From a bacterium (GTDB lineage Bacteria > UBA8248): a stretch of 64,000 nucleotides of DNA. The position numbers were made by a program, and so were the translations under genes. Numbering within the stretch: the first letter of the stretch is position 1; each line of letters begins with the position of its first letter. The notes under the pieces were generated by a model that saw only the letters and a list, made by a program, of their open reading frames with translations, was not told the origin of the DNA and searched no databases. Below are positions 1,340 to 61,857 of this stretch, one piece after another. The stretch covers positions 320,001-384,000 of the forward strand of contig CBDCRP010000002.1 of NCBI GenBank assembly GCA_965221165.1. The letters are read 5' to 3'.

Positions 1340-1373
1340 AAAAAAAGACGGCCCCGAAGAGCCGCCTTTTTTT
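1340..1373. terminator. Bidirectional intrinsic terminator
   Basis: A7-GACGGC-loop-GCCGCC-T7 between convergent genes. Confidence 0.7.
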
Positions 1374-1385
1374 GTTTCGCTTCGT

Positions 1386-2024
1386 TTAAGCCGTAACGGC
1401 CTGCTCGGCGAGCAACTCATCGAGCACACGATCGACTCTGGGCTGCTCCGTCCAACTCGCCTTGTAGGCGATGTTCCCGTCCTTGTCGATGACGAAGACC
1501 ATGTTCGGCATGCGGCCATAGGCGTTCACCACCGTCTCGTCGACGTCATCCACCAGAACGGGAATTTTCATGCCGAATTCCGCCACCAACTCCTTCGCAT
1601 AATCTATCTTGTGCTCGAAAGAAGTGTGCTGGGAGTATTTTTTGAAGTACTTGCGCTCCTGCGCGTGGGGCTCTTTCGAATAGACGACGAAGAACTCGAC
1701 GTCCTTGTCCTCGTAGCGCTCATGCAACTCGTCCATGCCCGGCACCTGCCGGCGGAAGGGAGGTCACGTGATGGCGCCGAACTCCAGGACGACGTTCTTC
1801 TTCCCGCGAAAATCGGCCAAATCCACGAGTTCGCCCGACGTGCTCTCAAGCTTCACCGGAGGCGCGGGCCGGCCGGGTTTCAACTGATCCTCAAACGCCT
1901 TGTGGCGGACCTTTCTGAATCCGCTCATTTCGCGCTTGATCATCAAAAACGGATCCAGATACCAGAGGCTCCACAAGCCTCCCAAAGGGCCGGGCGGCCT
2001 GTCGATATATTCTTCTTTCTGCAT
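1386..2024 (-). CDS. Deiodinase-like thioredoxin-fold selenoprotein (in-frame UGA read as Sec at 1766-1764)
   Basis: ORFs 1764-2024 and 1386-1745 are in the same frame and joined by one TGA, giving VLEFGAIT-U-PPFRRQVPGMDEL...VVYSKEPH. This matches the deiodinase motifs FGSCTUPPF and YIEEAH. 212 aa. Confidence 0.88.
1731..1763 (-). promoter_or_regulatory. Putative bacterial SECIS element
   Basis: Hairpin CCGGC-AGGT-GCCGG (1752-1739) starts 11 nt after the UGA. It has a G-containing apical loop and an extendable lower stem. Confidence 0.7.
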
Positions 2025-2132
2025 CTAACAATCTCCTATAGAATGATGAATGGCGAAAGGAAAAATTAGTCTATTCCCGGGTTTTTGTCGATTCGCCCGC
2101 TGAAGCGGCTTCTGGCGCAAGAGTAGCCGGGA

Positions 2133-2906
2133 CTAGGATGAGCTTGGGCCTCTCTCGAAGGCGCTCCAGTAGACGTCCATCACCCTTTTGAAGCCCACGC
2201 TTTCGAATACGCGCTCGGAAGCCTCGTTTCCCCCCACGATGTAGCAATACGCCTCGCGCCCCCTGGCGAATCGCTCCTCGACCAGGGCGGACACCACCAC
2301 GCGCGCGAGGCCCTGGCCGCGGAAGCGACCCATCGTGTGCAGCATGCCGAGCGAACCGTTCGCATGAACCACCATGTAGGAGGCGAGTTCGCCGCCGATG
2401 CGTATCGCCGCCGTCGACCCGTTTTGGATTCTCGCCAGGGCGTATTCCTCCCCCTGGTCGTAGGGTGAATTCTCGGCCAGCATCTTCGCATCCTCAGTTA
2501 GCAGGCTTTCGATGCGGTGCGTGCTGAAGACGGGCCTGAAATCCTTTTTCTCGAGAATGAACATGCCCACGGGCGAACCCCGGATGAGTTTTCTTCGCCT
2601 CTCAACTGCCTTTTGAATCTCGATCGGGACGGAGGAGAGCTTGAGATAGCCCTCGCTCCGCTCCATCTGGGCCGATAGGCGCTCCATCTCTTCGAGTTTC
2701 GAGAGGACGGCTTCAGGAGGCCCCAGCGGCGTGAGCCAGCCGCGCCCAGCGTTCACCGCCATCTGCGGCGCGGCGAGGTCGTCCACCCAGAGGGAGAGGG
2801 ATTCTCCCCCCTCGGCGATGGCCTCAGAGAAACGCACCCTGAGCGGACCCTGCGCGCTTAAGAATTTTTGGAAAGATCCGCCCTGGGGGTTCTCCAATCG
2901 AAACAA
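2133..2906 (-). CDS. GNAT family N-acetyltransferase (FR47-like C-terminal domain)
   Basis: LGMLHT..RFRGQGLA acetyl-CoA motif and N.AS.RVFESVGF. Confidence 0.8.
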   Translation of the reverse strand: MFRLENPQGGSFQKFLSAQGPLRVRFSEAIAEGGESLSLWVDDLAAPQMAVNAGRGWLTPLGPPEAVLSKLEEMERLSAQMERSEGYLKLSSVPIEIQKAVERRRKLIRGSPVGMFILEKKDFRPVFSTHRIESLLTEDAKMLAENSPYDQGEEYALARIQNGSTAAIRIGGELASYMVVHANGSLGMLHTMGRFRGQGLARVVVSALVEERFARGREAYCYIVGGNEASERVFESVGFKRVMDVYWSAFERGPSSS

Positions 2907-3025
2907 TTTCCGCTACACTCCCCTGCTGATGAAAAACGCCGCCCTTTCGGAGGAGTGATTATACCCGCTCATCCTCCCGAATGCAGAGACGGGGAATCTC
3001 AAAACAAAGCGCCTCAGGAGAGAAA

Positions 3026-4099
3026 ATGAAGGAATACCGCATCATCACCATCCCGGGGGACGGGATCGGCCCCGAGCTCATGGAATCCACCACTGCCGTC
3101 CTCGAAGCCGTGCAGGGGGCGGACGAGACCTTGAGGCTGAAACTGGAAGAACATGAAGCGGGAGCCGCCCGGTACGCCAAGCATGGGAAACGCATCAGCG
3201 ATGAAACCATACAGGCTTGCCGCGAGGCGGACGGCGTCCTCAAAGCGCCCGTGGGGAATCCGGCGGTTCGCACGCCGGAGGGCACCGAGGCGGGGCTTCT
3301 GGGCGGAGTTCTGAGAACGGGGCTCGATCTGTTCGCCAACATGCGGCCCGTGAAACTCTACCCGGGCATCCGGAGCCCCCTGGCGGGCTATGAAGCCGGC
3401 GGCATCGATTACGTCGTGATTCGCGAGAACACGGAGGGTCTCTACGCCTCGCGCGACAAGGGAGTCGGCGGCCCCAACGCCGTGGCCGACACCATGATCA
3501 TCACCCGCCCGGGAGTGGAGCGCGTCGTGCGGTTCGCCTTCGAACTCGCGCGTAAAAGAAACGGCGCGCCCGAAGACGGCGTCAGGCGCGTCACCTGCGT
3601 GGACAAGAGCAACGTACTTCGCTCCATGGCCCTGTTCCGCGAGGTATTCTTTGAAGTCGCGGCCGAGTATCCCGAGGTCGAGGCGGAAGCGGTGTATTCG
3701 GACGCCTGCGCCAACCATCTGGTGATTCGCCCGGCGCACTACGACGTGCTGGTGATGGAGAACATGCTGGGAGATTTGCTCAGCGACCTAGGCGGCGCTA
3801 CGGCCGGCGGCCTCGGCATGTGCCCCTCGGGGAACATCGGGGAGAAATTCGCCTTTTTCGAGGCGGTTCACGGCTCGGCCCCCGACATCGCCGGCCAGGG
3901 AATCGCAAACCCTCTGAGCCTCGTTCTCTCCGCCGCCCTCATGCTCGCCCACATCGGGGAGAGCGAAGCCGCGAACCAGATAGAAACCAGTGTGTGGGAA
4001 GCGCTCGAGGCCGGGGAGATTCGCCTGGACGGCAAAGGACGCTCCATCGACGGCACCAAAGCCATCACCGATGCGGTGTGCGCCCGCCTGAGGGGATGA
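3026..4099 (+). CDS. Isocitrate/isopropylmalate dehydrogenase family protein
   Basis: IPGDGIGPE, RENTEGLY, VDKSNV, ENMLGDLLSD and FEAVHGSAPDIAGQGIANP. SD AGGAG precedes ATG 3026. Confidence 0.9.
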   Translation: MKEYRIITIPGDGIGPELMESTTAVLEAVQGADETLRLKLEEHEAGAARYAKHGKRISDETIQACREADGVLKAPVGNPAVRTPEGTEAGLLGGVLRTGLDLFANMRPVKLYPGIRSPLAGYEAGGIDYVVIRENTEGLYASRDKGVGGPNAVADTMIITRPGVERVVRFAFELARKRNGAPEDGVRRVTCVDKSNVLRSMALFREVFFEVAAEYPEVEAEAVYSDACANHLVIRPAHYDVLVMENMLGDLLSDLGGATAGGLGMCPSGNIGEKFAFFEAVHGSAPDIAGQGIANPLSLVLSAALMLAHIGESEAANQIETSVWEALEAGEIRLDGKGRSIDGTKAITDAVCARLRG

Positions 4100-4106
4100 G
4101 TGCAGG

Positions 4107-4793
4107 TTAGGAAAACCGCTCGCGCAGGAGCGTCCATACGGCGATAAAACCGTCTCGCCAGGTTATCTTCTTTCCCTCCGCGTAGGTGCGCCCGTAGTAG
4201 GAAATCGGAACCTCGTAGATGCGCCACTTCGCGGGTTTCAGGATTTTTGCGGTGAACTCCGGCTCGAAATCGAACCCTTTGGCCCGGATTTTGATGTCCT
4301 TCACCACCTCGCGCCGGAACATCTTGTAGCAGGTTTCCATGTCGGTGAGCGTGCAGTTGAACAATATGTTGGCCAGGGTGGTCAGCATATGGTTGCCCAC
4401 CTTGTGCCAGAACATGTGCACGCGCTGGGGTTTTCCTCCAAAACGCGTTCCGTACACCACGTCGGCCGCTCCTCGGCGTATCGGATCATACAAATCACCG
4501 AATTCGGCGGGGTCGTATTCGAGATCGGCATCCTGAACGACGATCACGTCCCCGCCGGCCGCTGCGAAGCCATCGCACAGAGCGGCTCCTTTGCCTTCGT
4601 TTTTCTCCCGGTAAATGACGCGCACGCCGTCGTTTTCGATTTCAGCCAGGATGTCGCGGGTGCCGTCCGTGCTGCCGTCATCCACGATGAGGAGTTCGAT
4701 GTTCATCGGCACCGCCTGGACGCGTGAGACGATTTCGCGAATCGTGTCGCGCTCGTTGTAGCACGGCATCACAACGCTCAGTAAATCGGGCAT
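4107..4793 (-). CDS. Glycosyltransferase family 2 (DPM1/polyprenol-phosphate GT-like)
   Basis: LSVVMPCYNE, VDDGSTDGT, GKGAAL, QDADLEYDP and DMETCYK. The start could be as far upstream as 4841. Confidence 0.9.
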   Translation of the reverse strand: MPDLLSVVMPCYNERDTIREIVSRVQAVPMNIELLIVDDGSTDGTRDILAEIENDGVRVIYREKNEGKGAALCDGFAAAGGDVIVVQDADLEYDPAEFGDLYDPIRRGAADVVYGTRFGGKPQRVHMFWHKVGNHMLTTLANILFNCTLTDMETCYKMFRREVVKDIKIRAKGFDFEPEFTAKILKPAKWRIYEVPISYYGRTYAEGKKITWRDGFIAVWTLLRERFS

Positions 4794-6175: not shown

Positions 6176-7027
6176 GTGTCGAAAGTAATTCGCGTCGCGC
6201 ATAGCCCGGATTCGGACGATGCCTTCATGTTCCACGCCCTGGCGAACGAAAAGATCGCGCAGGGTGCGTATGAGTTCACCCATAAGCTCCATGACATCGA
6301 AACGCTGAACCAGGCCGCTTTCGAGGGCAAATACGAGGTGAGCGCCATCAGCTTTCACGCGTATTGCCATCTCGCCGATCGCTACGCCATTTTGCCGCAC
6401 GGGGCGAGTTTTGGGGACGACTATGGCCCCGTCATCATCTCGCGCGAGCCGATGACGCCAGAGGCGCTCCGGGATGTGGAAATCGCCATCCCCGGCCTGC
6501 TGACGACGGCCTATCTCACGCTCCGCCTTTACCTGGGGGGCGAGGAGCCGAAACACCGCGTGGTGCATTTCGACCAAATCATGGACGAGGTGAAAACAGG
6601 AGCCTCGCAGGCGGGTCTTTTGATTCACGAGGGCCAGCTCACCTTTGAGGAGGAGGGCTTCCATCTCGTGGAGGATCTGGGCAAGTGGTGGATGCGCGAA
6701 ACCGGCGGCCCCCTGCCCCTGGGGTGCAACGTCATCCGGAAAGATTTAGGGCCCGAGGTCGTGGGCGAGGTGAGCCGCCTGCTTCACCAAAGCATCGTCT
6801 ACGCGCTCGAGAACCGCGAGGAGGCGCTCGACCACGCCATGGCCTACGCCAGAGACTTACCGCGCGAGAAGGCGGACGTTTTCGTCGGCATGTACGTGAA
6901 CGAGTGGACGCGCTCATACGGCGACGCCGGGCGCAAGGCCGTCTCCACCCTGTTGGGCCGCGCAGCGGAGGCGGGCATCATCCCCGCAAGGATAGAGCCG
7001 GAGTTCATATCCTCACCCACCGACTGA
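6176..7027 (+). CDS. mqnD: 1,4-dihydroxy-6-naphthoate synthase (futalosine menaquinone pathway)
   Basis: AHSPDSDDAFMF, DIETLN, GLLIHEGQLT, PLPLG and MYVNEWT. Confidence 0.85.
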   Translation: MSKVIRVAHSPDSDDAFMFHALANEKIAQGAYEFTHKLHDIETLNQAAFEGKYEVSAISFHAYCHLADRYAILPHGASFGDDYGPVIISREPMTPEALRDVEIAIPGLLTTAYLTLRLYLGGEEPKHRVVHFDQIMDEVKTGASQAGLLIHEGQLTFEEEGFHLVEDLGKWWMRETGGPLPLGCNVIRKDLGPEVVGEVSRLLHQSIVYALENREEALDHAMAYARDLPREKADVFVGMYVNEWTRSYGDAGRKAVSTLLGRAAEAGIIPARIEPEFISSPTD

Positions 7028-7044
7028 AAAGCGGAGGCGGATTC

Positions 7045-7428
7045 ATGCTGGAGGGAATGCACCACATATCCATCAGCGTCGATGATCTGGAAGAAGCGCG
7101 CGATTTTTACGCCGGTCTTCTCGAACTTGCGGAAATCGACCGCCCGAACCTGCCGAACCCAGGCTACTGGTTCCAGGCGGGCGCCTGCCAGCTTCATCTC
7201 ACGGGTCGCCGGGATCGCGCGAGCGAAACGAGCATCCCGGGCACCGGTGCGGGCGAAACCCACTTCGCCTTCGCGGCGTCTGATCTGGAACCCGTGAAAC
7301 GAAGGCTGGAAATAGCGGGCGTGGACGTAAAAGACGGCGTCAACGCCGGGCTGGGACTGCGGCAACTTTTCTTCAGAGACCCCTCGGACAACCTCGTGGA
7401 AGTGTTCTGCACGCTGGACGAGTCTTGA
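7045..7428 (+). CDS. VOC/glyoxalase family protein
   Basis: MHHISISVDDL, HFAF and QLFFRDPSDNLVE. SD GGAGG precedes ATG 7045. Confidence 0.85.
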   Translation: MLEGMHHISISVDDLEEARDFYAGLLELAEIDRPNLPNPGYWFQAGACQLHLTGRRDRASETSIPGTGAGETHFAFAASDLEPVKRRLEIAGVDVKDGVNAGLGLRQLFFRDPSDNLVEVFCTLDES

Positions 7429-7432
7429 AACC

Positions 7433-7861
7433 ATGAAGCGAAACAGATTTCACCTGGCCGGGGCCGTGCCCTGGCGAAAAACGGAAGACGGGCTGAAAAT
7501 CCTCCTCATCACCACGCGCGACAGGCCCTTGGACGACGACTATCCCTGGTGGATAGTGCCCCAGGGCGGCGTGGAGCCGGGGCAGACCGCTCAAGAGGCC
7601 GCCATCGTCGAAACCTGGGAGGAGGCGGGTGTTCGCGGAGTAGCGTCACAGGAGCCGTTCGCGTACTACGACTATCCCACCGGCACGGGCAGGTGTAGAG
7701 TCGACATCTTCGAGATAGAGGTCGAAGCCGTCGAGGACGACTGGCCCGAGAGCCATGAGAGAAGACGCGTCTGGCTCTCTGCCGAGGACGCCCTGGAAAC
7801 CATTTCGGGAGAAACGCTTAGAAGCATCCTGAGAGAATTCTTGAGGAGAATGGGGGTTTAG
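7433..7861 (+). CDS. NUDIX hydrolase (diphosphoinositol/Ap6A-hydrolase-like)
   Basis: Nudix box GGVEPGQTAQEAAIVETWEEAG and WPESHERRRVW. Confidence 0.85.
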   Translation: MKRNRFHLAGAVPWRKTEDGLKILLITTRDRPLDDDYPWWIVPQGGVEPGQTAQEAAIVETWEEAGVRGVASQEPFAYYDYPTGTGRCRVDIFEIEVEAVEDDWPESHERRRVWLSAEDALETISGETLRSILREFLRRMGV

Positions 7862-8553
7862 GGCTTTCGCGCCGCGATGAGCGCGCGGTTGTAGTGCAGA
7901 TACAGGGGCGCGGCCAAAAAGCCTGCGGCCGCAAGCCATTCGACTTGCTCATTCAGGCTTAAGGGGTAATCGCCCTTCCCGTCGTAGCGCTCGCGATATT
8001 CACCGAACGTCATCGGCGCATCCACCCCACGGTTCAATCGATTCCACACGCGCTCATATTCAGCGGGCAAGTCGTCAAAGCGCGGATCGATCCGATCGAG
8101 TATGTAAAAAGCTCCCCCCGGACGCAGGAGTTCGAACACTTTTTCATAAACCGCCCGTTTGCTCTCGTGGGTAATTTCATGCAGGGCCTGGCTGCTGAAA
8201 GCAGCCGCATAGGGCGCACCGGGAAACTCGACCGCTTCCAGATTGTTCATATCGCCCGGAATCGGGTGGTATCTGCTCTCATAAGCGCATAAACGCTCGG
8301 AGGCGAGCTTCAACATCTCCTCCGAACTATCGAGACACGCCACCCTCACATGGGGAATGCGCTCGAAAATGAGGGCTTCCACCTGGCCCGAGCCTGCGCC
8401 CAAGTCCAGAATCCACCCATCCTCCGTTCCCACGCCCTCCAGCAGGGTGATGAGCAGATCGAGTTGATTCGCCCGGTCGGGATTGTCCCGCGCGGCGTTC
8501 ACCGCATCCCAGTTTTGGGCGAAACTCCCCTCCCCCCAGGCGTCTTTCGCCAT
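7858..8553 (-). CDS. Class I SAM-dependent methyltransferase
   Basis: ILDLGAGSG, LDSSEEML, SQALHEI and LRPGG. The ATG overlaps the upstream TGA. Confidence 0.85.
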   Translation of the reverse strand: MAKDAWGEGSFAQNWDAVNAARDNPDRANQLDLLITLLEGVGTEDGWILDLGAGSGQVEALIFERIPHVRVACLDSSEEMLKLASERLCAYESRYHPIPGDMNNLEAVEFPGAPYAAAFSSQALHEITHESKRAVYEKVFELLRPGGAFYILDRIDPRFDDLPAEYERVWNRLNRGVDAPMTFGEYRERYDGKGDYPLSLNEQVEWLAAAGFLAAPLYLHYNRALIAARKP

Positions 8554-9935
8554 CAAGCGGCTCTGCAAGCGCTCATCAAGGCGTTTGCGTCCGGCGCCGT
8601 TTCGAATTCCAGTACGGCCTCCACGGCGGAATCGACATTGCCCTCAGGCAAAACGCGGCGCGCGTTTCCGCGAAACTTGGCCTCGACGTCCTCCCATTCC
8701 ATCGGGTTTTCCGGGTTTCCCCAGTTGACGGGTTCATCGCGCTCCAGGACGCGGCCGTCTTTGAGCGTCATCTTCACGCCGCCGTGCAGGTACTTTGGGA
8801 AGCGATCGGAATCCACTCCCGTGCACTTCACCTTCCCGGCGAGATCGAGCACCTGGGCGTCGCCTAAATGTTTTTCCTCGAAATCATCGAGCGTGGCCCG
8901 GCCCTTCACCACGTTGACCGCCAGGCAATAGGGCAGGCTGAAAAGGGCCGCATACTGCGTATTGGGCTTTCGCTTGTGCTCGATGGGTTCGCACACGATA
9001 TGGAGAATCGGCTCGGGCGTGATGGTCTCGATCTCATCGATCTCATCGATGGATATGCCCGCCTCGCGCACCAGGCTTTTCGCCGCGTCCATCGTCGCAT
9101 GATTGAAATGGCAGCAGGGATAGGGCTTGAACGAAATGCGCAGCGTCTCCCAGCGCTCGCCGAGTCCGCCCGCCAGGATTTCCGGGTCATAGGCCGGATC
9201 GCTCAAATGGGTGGCGTAGAGGCCGAACCTGCCCTCAAAGACTTTTCGGGGGCCCATGAACCCGTGGCCCGCCATCTGCGCGGCGGTGACGCCCGCATGA
9301 GAGGCCCACCCCGGATGGAAGCGCTTCACCCAGCTTCCATCGTCCAAGAATTCCTGAATTCCCGCCGCCTGGCTCCCGCACACGCCGAACGCGTTGGCTA
9401 TTTCCGCCGGTGCGTGCTTCATCAGACGCCCCATGATGGCCGCCGCCCCGAAAGCGCCGCATATGGGCGTGGCGTGGTAGCCCTCTGCATGAAACGCCCC
9501 CGGCACCGCGCCCCCGATTCTGGCGATGACCTCATAGCCCGCCACCATGGCCGCCAGGATGTCCTCCCCGCTCGCGCCGACGGCCTCGCCGGCGGCCAGG
9601 GCCGTTGGCACCACGCAGGCGCTCATGTGGGTGATGGAATCCGTATGGGTGTCGTCGAAATCAAGGCCGTGCACGTAGCTGCCGTTCACCATGGCGGTGT
9701 GCGCGACCGGCAGTTTGTCCCCGTATCGCCAAACGGTGGCCTGGGGCTTACCGCCCCAATCACGCGCCGTTTTCGTCACCGCGTCGGCGTAGGGCTCGCG
9801 TGTCGCGGCCAGGCCTATCCCCAAGGCGTCGAGAAGATGGCGTTTCGCCTTCTCGACCACCTGCTCGGGAATGTCTTCAAAAGATAAGTTCGCGGCGAAA
9901 CGCGCCAGCTTGTCGCTCATCGTTTCCATGTTCAT
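8553..9935 (-). CDS. MmgE/PrpD family protein
   Basis: HGLDFDDTH, GYEV, KRFHPG, KPYPCCHFNH and GNPENPM. Confidence 0.9.
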   Translation of the reverse strand: MNMETMSDKLARFAANLSFEDIPEQVVEKAKRHLLDALGIGLAATREPYADAVTKTARDWGGKPQATVWRYGDKLPVAHTAMVNGSYVHGLDFDDTHTDSITHMSACVVPTALAAGEAVGASGEDILAAMVAGYEVIARIGGAVPGAFHAEGYHATPICGAFGAAAIMGRLMKHAPAEIANAFGVCGSQAAGIQEFLDDGSWVKRFHPGWASHAGVTAAQMAGHGFMGPRKVFEGRFGLYATHLSDPAYDPEILAGGLGERWETLRISFKPYPCCHFNHATMDAAKSLVREAGISIDEIDEIETITPEPILHIVCEPIEHKRKPNTQYAALFSLPYCLAVNVVKGRATLDDFEEKHLGDAQVLDLAGKVKCTGVDSDRFPKYLHGGVKMTLKDGRVLERDEPVNWGNPENPMEWEDVEAKFRGNARRVLPEGNVDSAVEAVLEFETAPDANALMSACRAA

Positions 9936-9963
9936 CTCCTGAACTCGAATCCGGCTCTGCTCT

Positions 9964-11328
9964 CTAGGCGAGGTGCGCCACCAATGCGTTCATCCTCTCC
10001 ATCTCGTCCAAACTTGAAACGGCCTCTATCAATACATCTTGAGAGTCGGGCGAAATCACGCCACCCGTAATTTGCCTGAATTTCCCCGCCACCATGTCGA
10101 AATCCATCGGGTTTTGAGGCGATCCCTTGGGACCCGCGACACGGCTCTCGAGTTCTCGGCCATCATGGGTGCGAATCGCCACTTTCGCGGGAAAGGTTTT
10201 GGGGTAGAGTTTCTCGATCTCGGAGTCCACCGTGAAGCGCGCCCGCCGGGCGAGAGCCACAAGCTCGGGGTCGGCGATGCGCTCGGGCGTGAACTGCTCG
10301 GGCCCCGCCTGCCCGTCGGTGAGCGCCACCGCGGCGCAATACTCGATGTTCATCTGCGCGCGGAGCGAACTCACGGGTTCATAACGCCACGAACACTGTT
10401 GTTTCACCACGCTGTGGTTCATGATCTCCATTTCCCGCACGTCATCCGGCGCGACCCCATGCTCCCTGCGCAGGGCGAGAACGGCGTCGATGGTCGAATG
10501 CGTGCTCCCGCAGCAGCAATAGGGTTTGAAGGAAACGCCTTCCGTCTCCCAAAACGCGCCCAAATCCTTCGTCAGGGGTTCCGGATCCCCGCAGCCGCTG
10601 AACGCCCGTATAAAACCCCCGTCCTCGTACTCGAAAATCTCCTTGGGGCCCGTATAGCCCCTCCCGGCGAGGGAGGCGGCCATGAGGCCGCTTTGGGCCG
10701 CGCGGCCCGCGTGAAAGCGCTTCGTCTCCGAGCCGTCGCACTGAAAAGCCCATGTTCCCGCGCCCTGCGTCCCCGCCAGGCCTAAGGCGTTGGCCGTTTG
10801 CTCGGGGTTTAGTTTCATCAGATGCGCCGCAGCAGCAGCCGCGCCAAAGGGGCCGCACAGGCCCGTGAGATGAAATCCCCGCCTGCGCACCTCCAGGGCG
10901 TCGGCTGCGATGCTCGCGCGGATCATGGTTTCATAACCCACCGCGCAAGCGGTCATAAAGGCCGCACCACCCACCCCCATCTTCTCGGCAAGCGGAAAAG
11001 CTGCGGCGAAAACCACCGCGCCCGGGTGGAGCTTGGCGCCGCTGTGGTAGTCATCGAGTTCGAACGCGTGCATCCAGGTGCCCAGGCAAAGCGCGACGGG
11101 CCCCACCGGCCCGCGCCATGCGTTTCTCCAGAGGGTGGCTTCCGCGCTGCCGCCTTGTTCCTGGATGAAACCGGACAGTATTCGCCCCGATTCGGTGGTC
11201 GTGCCGTACAAGCCACAACCGAGCGCATCCAGAAAATGCTTGCCGATGCAGGCGCGCAAATTATCGGATAAATCATCATAGGAAGTTTCGCTGATGAATC
11301 GCGCGAGTTCGCGCGTATGGCCGTTCAT
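9964..11328 (-). CDS. MmgE/PrpD family protein (second paralog)
   Basis: HAFELDDYH, HPGAVV, KRFHAG, KPYCCCGSTH and KGSPQNPM. Confidence 0.9.
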   Translation of the reverse strand: MNGHTRELARFISETSYDDLSDNLRACIGKHFLDALGCGLYGTTTESGRILSGFIQEQGGSAEATLWRNAWRGPVGPVALCLGTWMHAFELDDYHSGAKLHPGAVVFAAAFPLAEKMGVGGAAFMTACAVGYETMIRASIAADALEVRRRGFHLTGLCGPFGAAAAAAHLMKLNPEQTANALGLAGTQGAGTWAFQCDGSETKRFHAGRAAQSGLMAASLAGRGYTGPKEIFEYEDGGFIRAFSGCGDPEPLTKDLGAFWETEGVSFKPYCCCGSTHSTIDAVLALRREHGVAPDDVREMEIMNHSVVKQQCSWRYEPVSSLRAQMNIEYCAAVALTDGQAGPEQFTPERIADPELVALARRARFTVDSEIEKLYPKTFPAKVAIRTHDGRELESRVAGPKGSPQNPMDFDMVAGKFRQITGGVISPDSQDVLIEAVSSLDEMERMNALVAHLA

Positions 11329-11337
11329 TCTCTCACC

Positions 11338-12213
11338 TCATTCCTTCGGCAGATACTCTGCTTCTATCGCATGATAGGCGTCATAATCGAGGAGTCGATA
11401 GAGCTCTTTGCGCGTCATCATGTTGTCCAGATAGCCCGCCATCGTGCCTTTTTCCTTAAGTTCATCGAGCAGCGATTCGCCCGCCCTGAGCATCGCGCGC
11501 ATGATGCTCACCGGGAACAGGATGAGCTTATACCCCATCTCCTCGAAATCCGCTTTGGGAATATGCGGCGTTTTGCCGAACTCCGTCATGTTGGCCAGCA
11601 GAGGACCCGGGCAACGCTCGGCATACTCGATGAACTCATCGCGCGTCTCGAGCGCCTCGATGAAGATGACATCGGCCCCGGCAGCGAGCGCGGCCTTGCC
11701 GCGCTCCACGGCCTCATCCATCCCGTGGACGTATTTGGCGTCGACGCGCGCCATGACGGCGAAATCCGGATCCGCCCGATGATCCACGGCGGCGCGGATT
11801 TTCCCTATAAATTCCTCACGGCTCACCACCTGTTTCCCGTCCAGGTGGCCGCACCGCTTGGGCAGCACCTGGTCTTCTATCTGAATGCACGCCACGCCCG
11901 CCCGCTCGAAATCACGCACCGTGCGCACGACGTTCACCGCGTTGCCGTAACCTGTATCCACGTCTACCACCAGCGGGATATCGACGGCGTCCGCTATATA
12001 CCTCGCGTTCATGAGCACCTCGCTCGAGGACGCCAGTCCATTGTCGGGCAGACCCGCGAGGGCATTCACCACGCCCGCCCCCGACATATAGACGGCCTCG
12101 AATCCCTTCGAAGCGATGAGTCTGGCCGTCAGCGCGTCGTGCGCGCCGGGGATGATCGTCGCCACCGGGCGTTCGAGGATTTCTTTGAATTTTTTTCGCA
12201 CAGAACCGGCCAT
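11338..12213 (-). CDS. prpB: Methylisocitrate lyase-like (ICL/PEP mutase family)
   Basis: PGAHDALTA, DVDTGYG, IEDQVLPKRCGH and LANMTEFGKTP. The exact substrate is uncertain. Confidence 0.75.
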   Translation of the reverse strand: MAGSVRKKFKEILERPVATIIPGAHDALTARLIASKGFEAVYMSGAGVVNALAGLPDNGLASSSEVLMNARYIADAVDIPLVVDVDTGYGNAVNVVRTVRDFERAGVACIQIEDQVLPKRCGHLDGKQVVSREEFIGKIRAAVDHRADPDFAVMARVDAKYVHGMDEAVERGKAALAAGADVIFIEALETRDEFIEYAERCPGPLLANMTEFGKTPHIPKADFEEMGYKLILFPVSIMRAMLRAGESLLDELKEKGTMAGYLDNMMTRKELYRLLDYDAYHAIEAEYLPKE

Positions 12214-12386
12214 ACATCCTTCCTTCCCGGAAATATCGATGGATTCAAGCGATGACCGCCTTCTCGCTAAACCGCATCTTCTTGTTGATATCAATGGACT
12301 TATAAGCCACCCTCGCTTCAAGATAAGCTCCCTTTATTCTTTCACACCATCCGGCATTCTCGCCAGGGCCTCAAGCTGATTTTTCC

Positions 12387-38583: not shown

Positions 38584-39096
38584 TTAAAAACCCATCCCCA
38601 CGATGAGCCGATTCCAGGCGTTGATGAGCGCGATGGCGCCGAGAAGTTCCACTATCTGCGCTTCTGAATAGTGCGCCTTGAGCGCCTCAAAAGTCTCATC
38701 GGAAACACTCACCCCCTGTGTGCTTTCCTCACAAAGGCGCAGCGCCGCTTTTTCTGGATCATTGAAGAGGTCGCTCGAGGAACCCTCTTGCGCGGCTTTT
38801 GTCTTCTCATCACCCACCTTGTGCATCCTTGCCATGTTTGAATGCATGTTCGTGCAAAAATGGCACCCGTTGAGCACCGATGCGCGAATGTTCAGGATTT
38901 CCTTGAAACCTATGTCGATCTCTCCCGGGCCATCCGCCACCGTGGTCAAGCTCAATAAAGATCGCAAGAAATCCGGTTTATGGGCCAAGGCCTTCACCGG
39001 TGGAATCACGACGCCGAATTGTTTTTTCAAATTCTCCATGATGCGTTTTGCGGACGCTTCCGCCTGTTCGGGCTCTAACTGGGAAATCCGTGCCAT
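38584..39096 (-). CDS. AhpD/carboxymuconolactone decarboxylase family peroxidase-like protein
   Basis: RASVLNGCHFCTNMH and INAWNR. Confidence 0.85.
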   Translation of the reverse strand: MARISQLEPEQAEASAKRIMENLKKQFGVVIPPVKALAHKPDFLRSLLSLTTVADGPGEIDIGFKEILNIRASVLNGCHFCTNMHSNMARMHKVGDEKTKAAQEGSSSDLFNDPEKAALRLCEESTQGVSVSDETFEALKAHYSEAQIVELLGAIALINAWNRLIVGMGF

Positions 39097-39330: not shown

Positions 39331-40158
39331 ATGGACAAGCAAATTTCTTTACGAGAAGCCGCTTCCCTCATCGAGGATGGAGATGCGATTAGTCCCGGCG
39401 GCACTCTTCTGCACAGGACTCCTGCCGCCCTCGTGCGCGAAATCGCGCGCGCAGGCACCCGGCGTCTAACGCTCATCAAGCCTTCCCCCGGCTATGACGC
39501 CGACCTCCTTTGCGCCGCAGGCGCCGTCGAGAGGGTCATCAGCGGTATCGTCACATTCGAGGCGGAATTCGGATTAGCGCCCCAATATCGAAAGGTGATT
39601 GAGAAAGGGTTGACCGGCCTCACCGAACACGCCTGAGCCAGCGTTCTCGCTGGGCTGCGGGCCGCAGCCTACGGCATCCCTTTTCAGCCCATTCGTGGAT
39701 TCACGGGGAGCGACATTCCGGAGCAAAGCGGTATTTTCACGATTGAAGACCCGTACACGAAAGAGGAACTCTACGCGATTCCCGCCCTCAAACCGGACTG
39801 GGCATTGATTCACGTTCAAAAATCAGACGCGCAGGGAAACGCCCAAATTCTGGGCAACCAGCAGTTTGACGTTGAAATGACGCGCGCGGCGCAAAAAGGG
39901 GTCATTCTCACAACCGAGAAAATCGTTGACCCCGAAGAACTCGCAGCGGAACCCGAGAGAACCACCATACCGGGTTTTCTCGTCAAAGCGGTCGTGGAAA
40001 CGCCGGGAGGGGCGTCTCCTTGCAGTTGCCATCCATACTACGGGGTCGATAAGGATGAAATGGGTCGTTACCTGGCCCTGACCCAAAGCAAGGATGGACT
40101 TGGGGAATATCTTGCCGGTACCGACCAGACACACACGCAAGACGCGTTGAGAAGATAG
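39331..40158 (+). CDS. CoA-transferase family I subunit A (GctA/CatI/IpdA-like) with in-frame UGA, putative Sec102
   Basis: ORFs ending at 39636 and starting at 39805 are one frame with only TGA 39634-39636 between them: TEHA-U-ASVLAGLRAAAYGIPFQPIRGFTGSD...PALKPDWALIHVQKSDAQGN. 275 aa, full family length. Confidence 0.85.
39637..39670 (+). promoter_or_regulatory. Putative bacterial SECIS element
   Basis: Hairpin GGCTGCG-GGC-CGCAGCC (39653-39669) with the loop starting at +24 from the UGA. It is preceded by a second hairpin, CCAGCG-TTCT-CGCTGG. Confidence 0.55.
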
Positions 40159-40160
40159 CG

Positions 40161-40913
40161 ATGGGCAATCGCCTGGCTTCGTTGCCTGAACACGTCATCC
40201 GCGCCGGAAACCAGATGGTCGTCACGCTGTCGCACCTCATCGAAGATGGTGACAAAGTGTTTCACGGGGTCAACTCTCCGCTTCCGATGGTTGCGATTTT
40301 TTTGGCCAAAAAACGACACGCGCCCAACTGCATGCTCATAGAAGTCGCGGGTTCCGTGGACCCGAAACCACGCTTCATGCCGAATAGCACGGCCGACCCC
40401 GAACTCTGCCACGGCGCGGCTTCAATGTTCTACAACCCGGACATGTACGATCTTTTTGCACGTGGAGAGATGGACCTCGCTTTTCTGGGCGCCGCCCAAC
40501 TCGATAAGCAAGGACGAGCCAACATGAGCTATATCGGCGACCCGTTTCACCCGAAAGTCAGGCTCCCCGGTGGAGGGGGAGGCTCCGTCATCATGCCCCA
40601 GGTGAAACGAACGGTTATTTGGCGAACGGTGCACGACAGGCGATTTCTCGTGCCGAGGGTCGATTTTTCGACGCAATCCGGAAATCTGAGCCACGTGGTG
40701 ACATCCATCGCCTTGTTTGAAAAAAAATCGACAGGGCTCGAACTCGCCAGCGTTCACGCGGGTCATTCGATGGATGAAGTGGTCGAGAAAACCGGATTTG
40801 ATTTGCATCGCCCGAACGTTGTCGCGCAAACGCCCCTGCCGAGCGCCGATGAACTAAGCGCTTTGGAGGAACTCGACCCGGATGGCGTGCGCTTTTCAGA
40901 ATTTCGTGTATAA
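40161..40913 (+). CDS. CoA-transferase family I subunit B (GctB/CatJ-like)
   Basis: FLGAAQLDKQGRAN, RLPGGGG, FLVPRVDF and ELASVHAG. Starts 2 nt after the stop of subunit A. Confidence 0.88.
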   Translation: MGNRLASLPEHVIRAGNQMVVTLSHLIEDGDKVFHGVNSPLPMVAIFLAKKRHAPNCMLIEVAGSVDPKPRFMPNSTADPELCHGAASMFYNPDMYDLFARGEMDLAFLGAAQLDKQGRANMSYIGDPFHPKVRLPGGGGGSVIMPQVKRTVIWRTVHDRRFLVPRVDFSTQSGNLSHVVTSIALFEKKSTGLELASVHAGHSMDEVVEKTGFDLHRPNVVAQTPLPSADELSALEELDPDGVRFSEFRV

Positions 40914-60959: not shown

Positions 60960-61724
60960 TCACTCACGCGCGCCGCCCGCTTTGAGTATCTCGATCACTT
61001 TATGAAACGGCTCCTTGTTTCCCTCGTTCCCCTTCATGCCGAGCAGGGCTTCGGTGAGGGGCGTCTGCCCGCGGTTGTTCTTCGCGTTCACCTCCGCACC
61101 CGCATCGAGCAGGGTCTGCGCAGCAGCCGCCTGCCCGCCGAAAGCCGCCCAGTGAAGCGGGGTCTTTCCTTGCTCATCGTCTTTGGCCTCTATCTTCGCA
61201 CCGCCTTTGAGCAGCACCTTTATCGCCGCTGGCTGTCCGTTTCCCGCCGCGATGTGAAGCGGCGTCAGCCCCTTCGTGTCTTTCGCGTTCACCTCCGCTC
61301 CGCCCGAGAGCAATGCCTCCATGCTCGCCGCGCGCCCTTTTATCGCCGCCCCATGAAGCGCCGTCGATTCCCTCTTGTCCCTCCCGTTGGGCTCCGCCCC
61401 TCCACGGAGCAGCGCTTCGACCGCCGCCGTGTGCCCCTGAAACGCCGCCCAATCCAGCGGAGCCTTTCCTATCTTGTCTCTTAAGTTCGCGTCCGCCCCA
61501 CCCGAGAGCAGCGCCTCGATACCCGTCGCGCGCCCCTTGATGGCCGCGAGGTGAAGCGGGGTCATCCCCACGTGGTTTCGCGCGTTCGCGTCCGCGCCGC
61601 CTGAAAGCAGGGCTTTAATCTGAGCCACCTCGCCCTTGAACGCCGCCCCGTGAAGCGGAGCCGCGAAAGCGGGGGAGGTCCACAGGCAAATCGCAAGAGC
61701 CGAAATGGTCAATCGGTGGAGCAT
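60960..61724 (-). CDS. Secreted ankyrin repeat protein
   Basis: Signal peptide (AFA-A) and about 6 repeats of G.TPLH.AA..G....ALL.GGA..N. SD GGAGG. Confidence 0.9.
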   Translation of the reverse strand: MLHRLTISALAICLWTSPAFAAPLHGAAFKGEVAQIKALLSGGADANARNHVGMTPLHLAAIKGRATGIEALLSGGADANLRDKIGKAPLDWAAFQGHTAAVEALLRGGAEPNGRDKRESTALHGAAIKGRAASMEALLSGGAEVNAKDTKGLTPLHIAAGNGQPAAIKVLLKGGAKIEAKDDEQGKTPLHWAAFGGQAAAAQTLLDAGAEVNAKNNRGQTPLTEALLGMKGNEGNKEPFHKVIEILKAGGARE

Positions 61725-61857
61725 GGAGTACCCTCCACATACAAGGGAACAAACAACGGAAGCGTGCTTCATTGCTGTACCCAAAAGAAGCTTCGAAATA
61801 AAACTAAAATATTTTTGAGACGCGCCCGAGAGCAGTCTCTCTTCATACCCCAACGTC

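Follow-up and report, generated by a model that had tools for sequence, protein, structure and literature searches.

Deiodinase-like selenoproteins of bacteria were reported in 2005 (Zhang, Fomenko and Gladyshev, PMC1088965) and appeared again in the GOS data, in a table that gives no motif for them (PMC2398784). Where two reviews list the family, it is assigned a UxxC motif (PMC9312934, PMC13188914); sections of PMC12025243, PMC8143656 and PMC2375036 also belong to the literature cited. In the literature searched (mostly titles outside subscription, with figures and supplements excluded), no functional work on any bacterial member was found, nor any description of the Cys-free A-I-T-U-P-P clade reported here. 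Either may already be in print, and the U-P-P form may already have been drawn in the alignment figure of 2005.

The animal deiodinases (Dio1-3) are membrane proteins which have been crystallised as truncated Cys mutants, and their re-reduction is treated as unsettled in the sections cited. In human DIO1 the Thr at position -1 from the selenocysteine (Sec) is essential, and exchange of the Ser at -3 for Ala lowers the activity but does not abolish it (PMC9141512). The corresponding Ser167Ala change in Dio3 lowers activity significantly (PMC7506546). Dio2 carries Ala in place of the Cys at -2 and has been described as a single-turnover enzyme.

The locus studied here lies on the minus strand of the window, which is the whole 64-kb stretch of DNA that was analysed. 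Similar to the prokaryotic deiodinase-like selenoproteins, it matches the Pfam family PF00837, has a bacterial-type SECIS downstream of the UGA and has Cys homologues. It differs from the tabulated UxxC family in its A-I-T-U-P-P-[FY] motif, in the lack of any Cys in 48 of the 52 clade proteins, in an N-terminal extension of its own and in the presence of two paralogues in many genomes. The gene and its flanks contain the following features.

1386..2024, minus strand: deiodinase-like selenoprotein gene, full read-through, 212 aa (T4_deiodinase profile, comparison of loci, fold model)
1884..2024, minus strand: clade-conserved N-terminal extension, residues 1-47, with a Pro-Gly-aromatic stretch and basic helices (pLDDT 62-91 by block)
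1764..1766, minus strand: in-frame TGA, predicted Sec87 in A-I-T-U-P-P-F (column conservation, Dio3 alignment)
1739..1752, minus strand: putative apical SECIS hairpin CCGGC-AGGT-GCCGG, 5-bp stem and 4-nt loop with G second (conservation, bSECIS model constraints)
2033..2037, minus strand: Shine-Dalgarno sequence AGGAG, 8 nt 5' of the ATG (sequence)
2063..2091, minus strand: weak promoter-like TCGACA-N17-TAnnnT, recognised by eye
1340..1373, minus strand: intrinsic terminator with an A-run and a T-run (fold -26.8 kcal/mol)

Under table 11 the locus appears as two ORFs of 86 and 119 aa. Read through its single in-frame TGA (1766-1764), it extends from the ATG at 2024-2022 to the TAA at 1388-1386, with the TGA as residue U87 of FGAIT-U-PPF (residues 82-90), YSKEPH at residues 115-120 and not one Cys in 212 residues. 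The in-frame TGA, both motifs and a hairpin 11 nt after the UGA had been described in an earlier sequence-only reading of this DNA, and all of them are present. A purine-rich element precedes the equivalent ATG in the close loci, and the promoter-like arrangement recurs at five of the six paralogue-A loci inspected. The terminator is probably bidirectional and lies between the selenoprotein gene and the convergent MFS gene; similar elements occur in four related loci (L001, L003, L013 and L016). A scan for consensus promoters and terminators detected neither flanking element (promoters 0, below threshold).

Related loci were collected with a pair of peptide patterns from the C-terminal part, both outside the Sec column, which were run against a single genome of each species. 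Among the 63 loci obtained, the column holds TGA in 60 and TGT, TGC and TGG in one each. The 51 close loci, at 57-94% identity, have TGA without exception; the closest stands at 94%, and the window itself is not one of them. The distant set was limited to rows with at least 125 residues aligned, and 20 matches of Prx- or ResA-like type were removed; Cys occupies the column in 110 of the 126 full-domain homologues that it comprises. In mouse Dio3 the column aligned with U87 is that of the active site. It had been proposed that genuine homologues should keep Cys or Sec at this position, which is what both sets contain. Both halves of the gene are conserved (mean identity 0.67 and 0.75). TGA terminates the ordinary genes of the window, so the code is that of table 11; a genetic code with Trp or Gly at TGA was rejected for the same reason. 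The internal stop is very probably read as Sec, within a genuine bacterial gene.

In protein databases the clade gene is systematically split into halves. The FGAIT stretch is missing from 52 of the 54 closest matches, and all 15 short N-terminal matches are 86 aa long and end in GAIT. The two entries that cover the full column (P0002, P0004) have Gly or Trp at the Sec position and are probably gene calls made under other genetic codes. What the analysis bears out of the earlier statement, that the gene is missed by the ORF caller, concerns these homologues.

The stem of the hairpin begins 11 nt after the UGA and the loop 16 nt after it, and the GTG start (1745) of the apparent C-terminal ORF sits inside the structure. 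The bSECIS model specifies a loop of 3-9 nt, a stem of 4-16 bp and a G in loop position 1-2 (PMC13188914), together with a spacing of 16-37 nt and an energy of at most -7.5 kcal/mol (PMC13188914, Fig. 2 legend). In an own implementation of these published constraints, which is not bSECISearch itself, the window hairpin lies within them (4-nt loop, 5 bp, G second, -8.3), its 16 nt being the lower spacing limit. The resemblance to the E. coli fdhF SECIS that had been pointed out earlier stands for the upper stem, which begins 11 nt after the UGA in both, and for the CAGGT at the apex. It does not extend to the rest, as the K-12 element has a bulged U and a loop at 18 nt, whereas the window hairpin has no bulge and a loop at 16 nt.

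Taken alone, the hairpin is no stabler than shuffles in four stretches (z 0.90, 0.51, 1.11 and -0.23), and 56 of the 2026 TGA triplets in the window carry a comparable hairpin at 16-19 nt. Stability against shuffles was dropped as SECIS evidence and the case rests on conservation. Synonymous heterozygosity across 52 clade sequences, related and unweighted, is 0.04-0.08 at the hairpin codons R91, R92, V94 and G96, compared with 0.11-0.74 (mean 0.51) at 56 conserved, at least four-fold degenerate sites outside residues 88-97; the Pro codons P89 and P88 give 0.04 and 0.67. This synonymous freezing fits a bacterial SECIS. When the window peptide was re-coded synonymously 1000 times, a hairpin of equal stability arose in 10 trials and a looser one, at about this spacing, in 77. 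The stems differ between three groups, paralogue A, paralogue B and a Binatia-titled clade, and each encloses a G-containing loop at 16-17 nt. With the register of the stem kept fixed, 73% of cells are paired, a value equalled by none of 500 shuffles, but a slide of +1 scores alike because the register shifts between clades. The strict hairpin rule (-5 version) is passed by 52 of 61 TGA-bearing sequences, and several of the nine that fail do so through a bulge.

The best family of the read-through protein is Pfam T4_deiodinase (PF00837), with 71.4 bits against a cut-off of 27 and a continuous match over residues 37-189. Redoxin (62.9 bits) and AhpC-TSA (60.7 bits) follow, also above their cut-offs; the glutathione-peroxidase profile (GSHPx) is not among the four Pfam families at E 0.1 or better. 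This ranking, the TGA in 60 of the 63 loci and the frozen hairpin codons uphold the earlier claim of a deiodinase-like selenoprotein with a bacterial SECIS. NF038285 (deiodinase_rel) is the best NCBIfam match (E 1.1e-30, residues 51-190 on profile positions 179-325 of 347). The score of 107.2 bits falls short of the cut-off of 250; P0063 and P0146, bacterial sequences closer to the animal type, reach 213 and 217. On the side of the ResA/TlpA dithiol oxidoreductases, NF002854 gives 60 bits, below its cut-off of 170.

The structure model was built from 122 sequences and has a pLDDT of 92.5; a poor single-sequence model (pLDDT 51) was set aside. The top VIA-align match is Dio2 (Z 18.6, rmsd 3.0, 163 residues aligned), followed by the Bacteroides ResA-like protein 2LS5 (Z 18.2, rmsd 2.1, 149 aligned) and Dio3 (Z 18.0, rmsd 3.0, 163 aligned). 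These three are effectively tied by Z, and the two deiodinase alignments are the longest listed. Foldseek ranked ResA proteins first, the best PDB sequence matches are ResA/TlpA proteins, and the folds of AhpE and Bcp follow at Z 16-17. The protein has in common with peroxiredoxins (AhpE, Bcp) and with ResA/TlpA the thioredoxin fold, the N-terminal beta-hairpin and a nucleophile that starts helix 1. It differs from them by the absence of PxxxT/S, of the catalytic Arg and of CxxC, and by an extra loop insertion of the deiodinase type. With the fold, the loop insertion and the Thr-Tyr-Glu-His-His set all present, sequence and model support the view that the protein is a soluble selenoenzyme of bacteria and belongs to the deiodinase branch within the thioredoxin fold.

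A quick tree, with no animal sequence included, joins the clade (15 rows, 98%) to Cys proteins with Ala at -3 at 94% SH-aLRT, under the starred level. It places the clade in a large P-N...W branch, away from the more animal-like W-P-x-R sequences. The distant family is wide and mostly Cys-based, and U/CxxC forms make up 6 of 126, with L063 in addition. Among the distant homologues, P0057, P0089, P0114, P0128, P0134 and P0167 carry Ser, Asn or Gly in the catalytic position; judged by such residues, non-catalytic or differently acting family members exist.

The animal enzymes (4TR3, 9H48), at 25-26% identity, resemble the window protein in fold, loop insertion and the T-U-P-P-F sequence. Residue equivalences were taken from the alignment with 4TR3, and the Dio3 numbering was checked against the relevant part of PMC7506546. 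Three regions of the active site are involved.

1665..1682, minus strand: Y115-S-K-E118-P-H120, equivalent to Dio3 Tyr197, Glu200 and His202 (alignment with 4TR3)
1608..1664, minus strand: deiodinase-type loop insertion ending in Q132-H133, with K139 (Dio3 Gln218, His219 and Arg225; alignment)
1503..1511, minus strand: M172-P173-N174 in place of Dio3 Tyr257-Phe258-Glu259 (alignment)

All 52 clade proteins keep the equivalents of Dio3 Thr169, Sec170, Pro171-172, Tyr197, Glu200, His202, Gln218 and His219 and a basic residue for Arg225, so that Y115, E118 and H120 are invariant. Conservation reaches into the 126 distant homologues for T86 (116), Y115 (122), E118 (121) and H120 (118), and His133 is kept in only 62. 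The changes from Dio3 are Ser167 to Ala84, Cys168 to Ile, Cys239 to Ile or Val, Tyr257 to Met172, Phe258 to Pro, Glu259 to Asn174 and Arg260 to Met. Arg275 is replaced by Trp191, as placed by ungapped extension two residues beyond the alignment. The loop insertion is about four residues shorter than that of Dio3 and lacks Trp207 and Asp211, with Lys125 at the Trp207 position. The deiodinase catalytic network is present and the substrate clamp is absent, as far as aligned residues can indicate.

Unlike the animal enzymes, the window protein has no transmembrane anchor and its SECIS lies inside the coding sequence. An anchor was considered and rejected, since the 19-residue hydropathy maximum in the first 50 residues is 0.23-0.99 across the 52 proteins (Kyte-Doolittle 19-mer maximum 0.78 over residues 1-47 of the window protein). 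The animal motif S-[CA]-T-U is represented by A-I-T-U. The replacement of Ser-Cys by Ala-Ile had been singled out in the sequence-only reading and is indeed there, but the loss of Cys at -2 is not special, because Dio2 has Ala at this position and the five residues most frequent there in the 126 distant homologues do not include Cys. What sets the clade apart is the exchange of Ser for Ala at -3, and Ala84 occurs in 52 of 52 clade proteins. As the same exchange in DIO1 only lowers activity, Ala84 does not exclude deiodinase chemistry. All 52 proteins have U-P-P-F or U-P-P-Y and none has UxxC. The lack of an internal resolving Cys, which had also been noted, extends from the window protein to the Cys-free majority of the clade.

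The use of Sec by the host can be approached from the rest of the window. The 64 kb contain no tRNA by ARAGORN and no Rfam match, profile scanning of 56 window ORFs found no sel family, and no tRNA-Sec was found in the 60 of 63 related loci that were scanned. The read-through scan gave one further candidate.

39331-40158, plus strand: CoA-transferase family I subunit A (PF01144), with an in-frame TGA at 39634-39636 (read-through scan)

Of the 120 homologues listed for this protein, 103 cover the TGA position and 88 of the 103 have Cys there; the other 17 begin a few residues past the column. At 23 nt past the TGA there is a hairpin whose loop is rich in G; its stability is not significant (z -0.72, -1.30). 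The gene for subunit B comes next, at 40161-40913. Subunit A is a probable second selenoprotein of the window; a nonsense mutation is the alternative reading of its TGA, the homologues having been compared at the protein level only. A Sec-containing CoA-transferase is absent from the 119-family table of PMC13188914 and was not found in the literature searched, which lay mostly outside subscription titles, so that one may already be in print; PMC7176365, in the part cited, concerns formate dehydrogenases and not such an enzyme. The CoA-transferase TGA may be the more novel selenoprotein of the two. Two independent TGA/Cys genes within 64 kb favour Sec use by the genome, short of showing it.

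Other genes of the window include one for an AhpD/CMD-like protein at 38584-39096 (minus strand), which is open under table 11 and diverges from the CoA-transferase gene. In NCBIfam this protein comes closest to a family of YciW-related (seleno)proteins, at 86 against a cut-off of 310. Two MmgE/PrpD-family genes and a PEP-mutase/isocitrate-lyase-family gene lie at 8553-12321 (minus strand), and an ankyrin-repeat protein is encoded at 60960-61853 (minus strand).

The records of the 51 close loci are titled Nitrospinota, Nitrospinae or Nitrospinaceae in 22 cases and 'bacterium' in 29, and 15 assemblies carry two or three loci. Selenium and halogens are not mentioned in the available portion of the paper on the lineage (PMC10839748). 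Paralogue A, which includes the window gene, adjoins a convergent MFS gene in 21 of 21 loci and a GNAT gene in 18 of 21. In 19 of 30 loci paralogue B lies upstream of a luciferase-like monooxygenase, which a flavin reductase accompanies. The two gene contexts have nothing in common. Among the neighbour proteins, 141 of the 152 listed were scanned; no dehalogenase or sel family was assigned and no functional lead emerged. The flanks of paralogue B (L023-L050), from FtsH to the luciferase-like monooxygenase, hold variable toxin-antitoxin, PIN, HNH and Panacea genes, and the site is like an insertion hot spot. In L049 a second, divergent (38%) TGA-bearing copy stands at 10803-11405, directly downstream of the first. 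L063, a Deltaproteobacteria-titled contig, has three deiodinase-like copies at 2890-3630, 3861-4583 and 6723-7475, which read U-P-Y-C (UxxC), W-P-P-F (TGG, with the hairpin retained) and U-P-P-F. The TGG copy is possibly a Sec gene that is dead or was sequenced wrongly.

The reading preferred here, at a probability of roughly 0.4, is a reductive dehalogenase that is recycled by thiols and acts on a halo-aromatic other than a thyronine. SelB would almost certainly read the hairpin 3' of the UGA, with Sec inserted at position 87 to give one protein of 212 aa. From sequence and fold, Sec87 is predicted to lie at the beta1-alpha1 turn, and Thr86, Tyr115, Glu118, His120, Gln132, His133 and Lys139 would form a hydrogen-bond network; the equivalent network of Dio1 and Dio3 is described as anchoring the loop and relaying a proton. 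The selenolate may abstract I+ or Br+ from an activated halo-aromatic other than a thyronine, and the network would protonate the ring carbon. Because the protein has no Cys, oxidised Sec would have to be reduced by an outside thiol, either of low molecular weight or on a partner protein. The N-terminal extension and a wall of M-P-N and Trp191 might conceivably set the substrate, in which the two paralogues may differ.

The points in favour of a dehalogenase are the TGA fixed at a Cys column, the first rank of T4_deiodinase, the fold match to Dio2 and Dio3 and the retained catalytic residues; it has also been reported that fish deiodinases debrominate some PBDEs (PMC7144113). Against it stand the absence of any activity of a bacterial member from the literature searched and the judgement of Zhang et al. 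that a different function, of a redox kind, is likely (PMC1088965). Dio3 Trp207, Asp211, Tyr257, Phe258, Glu259, Arg260 and Arg275 are not kept, His133 is found in under half of the distant homologues (62 of 126), and Ser167Ala costs Dio3 activity. With the thyronine-binding residues lost and the neighbours lacking a halogen link, dehalogenase activity of the clade is something that we infer. The fold tie with 2LS5, the first place of ResA in Foldseek and the U/CxxC members of a wide, mostly Cys-based family, as is seen with general thiol oxidoreductases, count against it as well. They lead to a close rival, a Sec monothiol-type oxidoreductase or thiol transferase, which is a real if lesser possibility. 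Its selenolate would attack the sulfur of a mixed disulfide, persulfide or sulfenic acid on a protein or small molecule and be freed by a second outside thiol, with the deiodinase-like network only shaping the pocket. Monothiol glutaredoxins work by a similar two-thiol route. The absent thyronine-binding residues and the ResA/TlpA sequence and fold matches suit this rival, as does the UxxC motif given to the bacterial family in the reviews (PMC9312934, PMC13188914). Pro173, kept in 113 of 126 homologues, adjoins the thioredoxin cis-Pro position and was counted for it too, but in the 4NMU alignment, with the register taken from the following strand, that position is held by Asn174. Deiodinases have the Tyr-Glu-His set and the loop insertion as well, and ResA has neither.

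Asn174 also bears on the improbable reading that the protein is a thiol-dependent peroxidase with one Sec, or removes HOBr, HOI or haloamines as a scavenger. The Redoxin and AhpC-TSA scores and the AhpE and Bcp folds point towards it, and Sec without a resolving Cys is the arrangement of glutathione peroxidases, the profile of which is missing at E 0.1 or better. Peroxiredoxins have a conserved catalytic Arg, and where the Prx-like matches (P0065-P0084) have Arg the window protein has Asn174. The PxxxTxxU motif of Sec-peroxiredoxins (PMC13188914) is missing in 52 of 52 clade proteins, with I, L or V at position 80 (L80 in the window) and Ala at 84. The 1-Sec peroxidase that the sequence-only reading had allowed for is weakened by these residues, as far as the peroxiredoxin type is concerned. 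A true iodothyronine deiodinase acting on T4- or T3-like molecules from animals of the habitat would agree with the T-U-P-P-F motif, with the catalytic network and with the best matches in fold, but it is very unlikely. Other residues stand where Dio3 clamps T4, the loop is not as long and a membrane anchor is missing; NF038285 gives 107 bits against the 213 and 217 of P0063 and P0146, and the tree, in which no animal sequence stands, sets the clade apart from those two. That the UGA is a real stop, with a pseudogene, two separately made halves or Trp/Gly read-through as the outcome, is hardly credible. The window without Sec machinery, GTG 1745 as a possible start of the second half, the Gly and Trp entries, the TGG of L063 and the nine sequences that fail the hairpin rule speak for it. 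Against these are set the TGA column of the close loci, the conservation of both halves, the frozen synonymous sites and the table 11 code, under which the Gly and Trp entries are most simply calls made with another code; a split would also cut the fold at its active site.

As a family discovery the gene is ordinary, the bacterial family having been predicted since 2005. It is a well-supported selenoprotein gene, a Cys-free and soluble variant of a known prokaryotic deiodinase-like family. To judge from the Sec fixed in every close locus and from the 15 assemblies that keep two paralogues, the function seems to be of importance to the hosts, and the clade bears on what the bacterial members do, a question which has stood since 2005. 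A natural, soluble Sec relative without Cys and with Ser changed to Ala would test whether the Thr-Glu-His network suffices for dehalogenation. The dehalogenase reading can be carried further, to a doubtful form: a soluble Cys-free aryl dehalogenase which strips I or Br from natural halo-aromatics with Sec alone, free of cobalamin, Fe-S clusters and flavin, and whose paralogues, like Dio2 and Dio3, divide the substrates or the positions on the ring between them. If true, this would be the first activity of the bacterial deiodinase family in the literature searched, and the clade would offer a small, tractable model for deiodinase chemistry before thyroid hormones.
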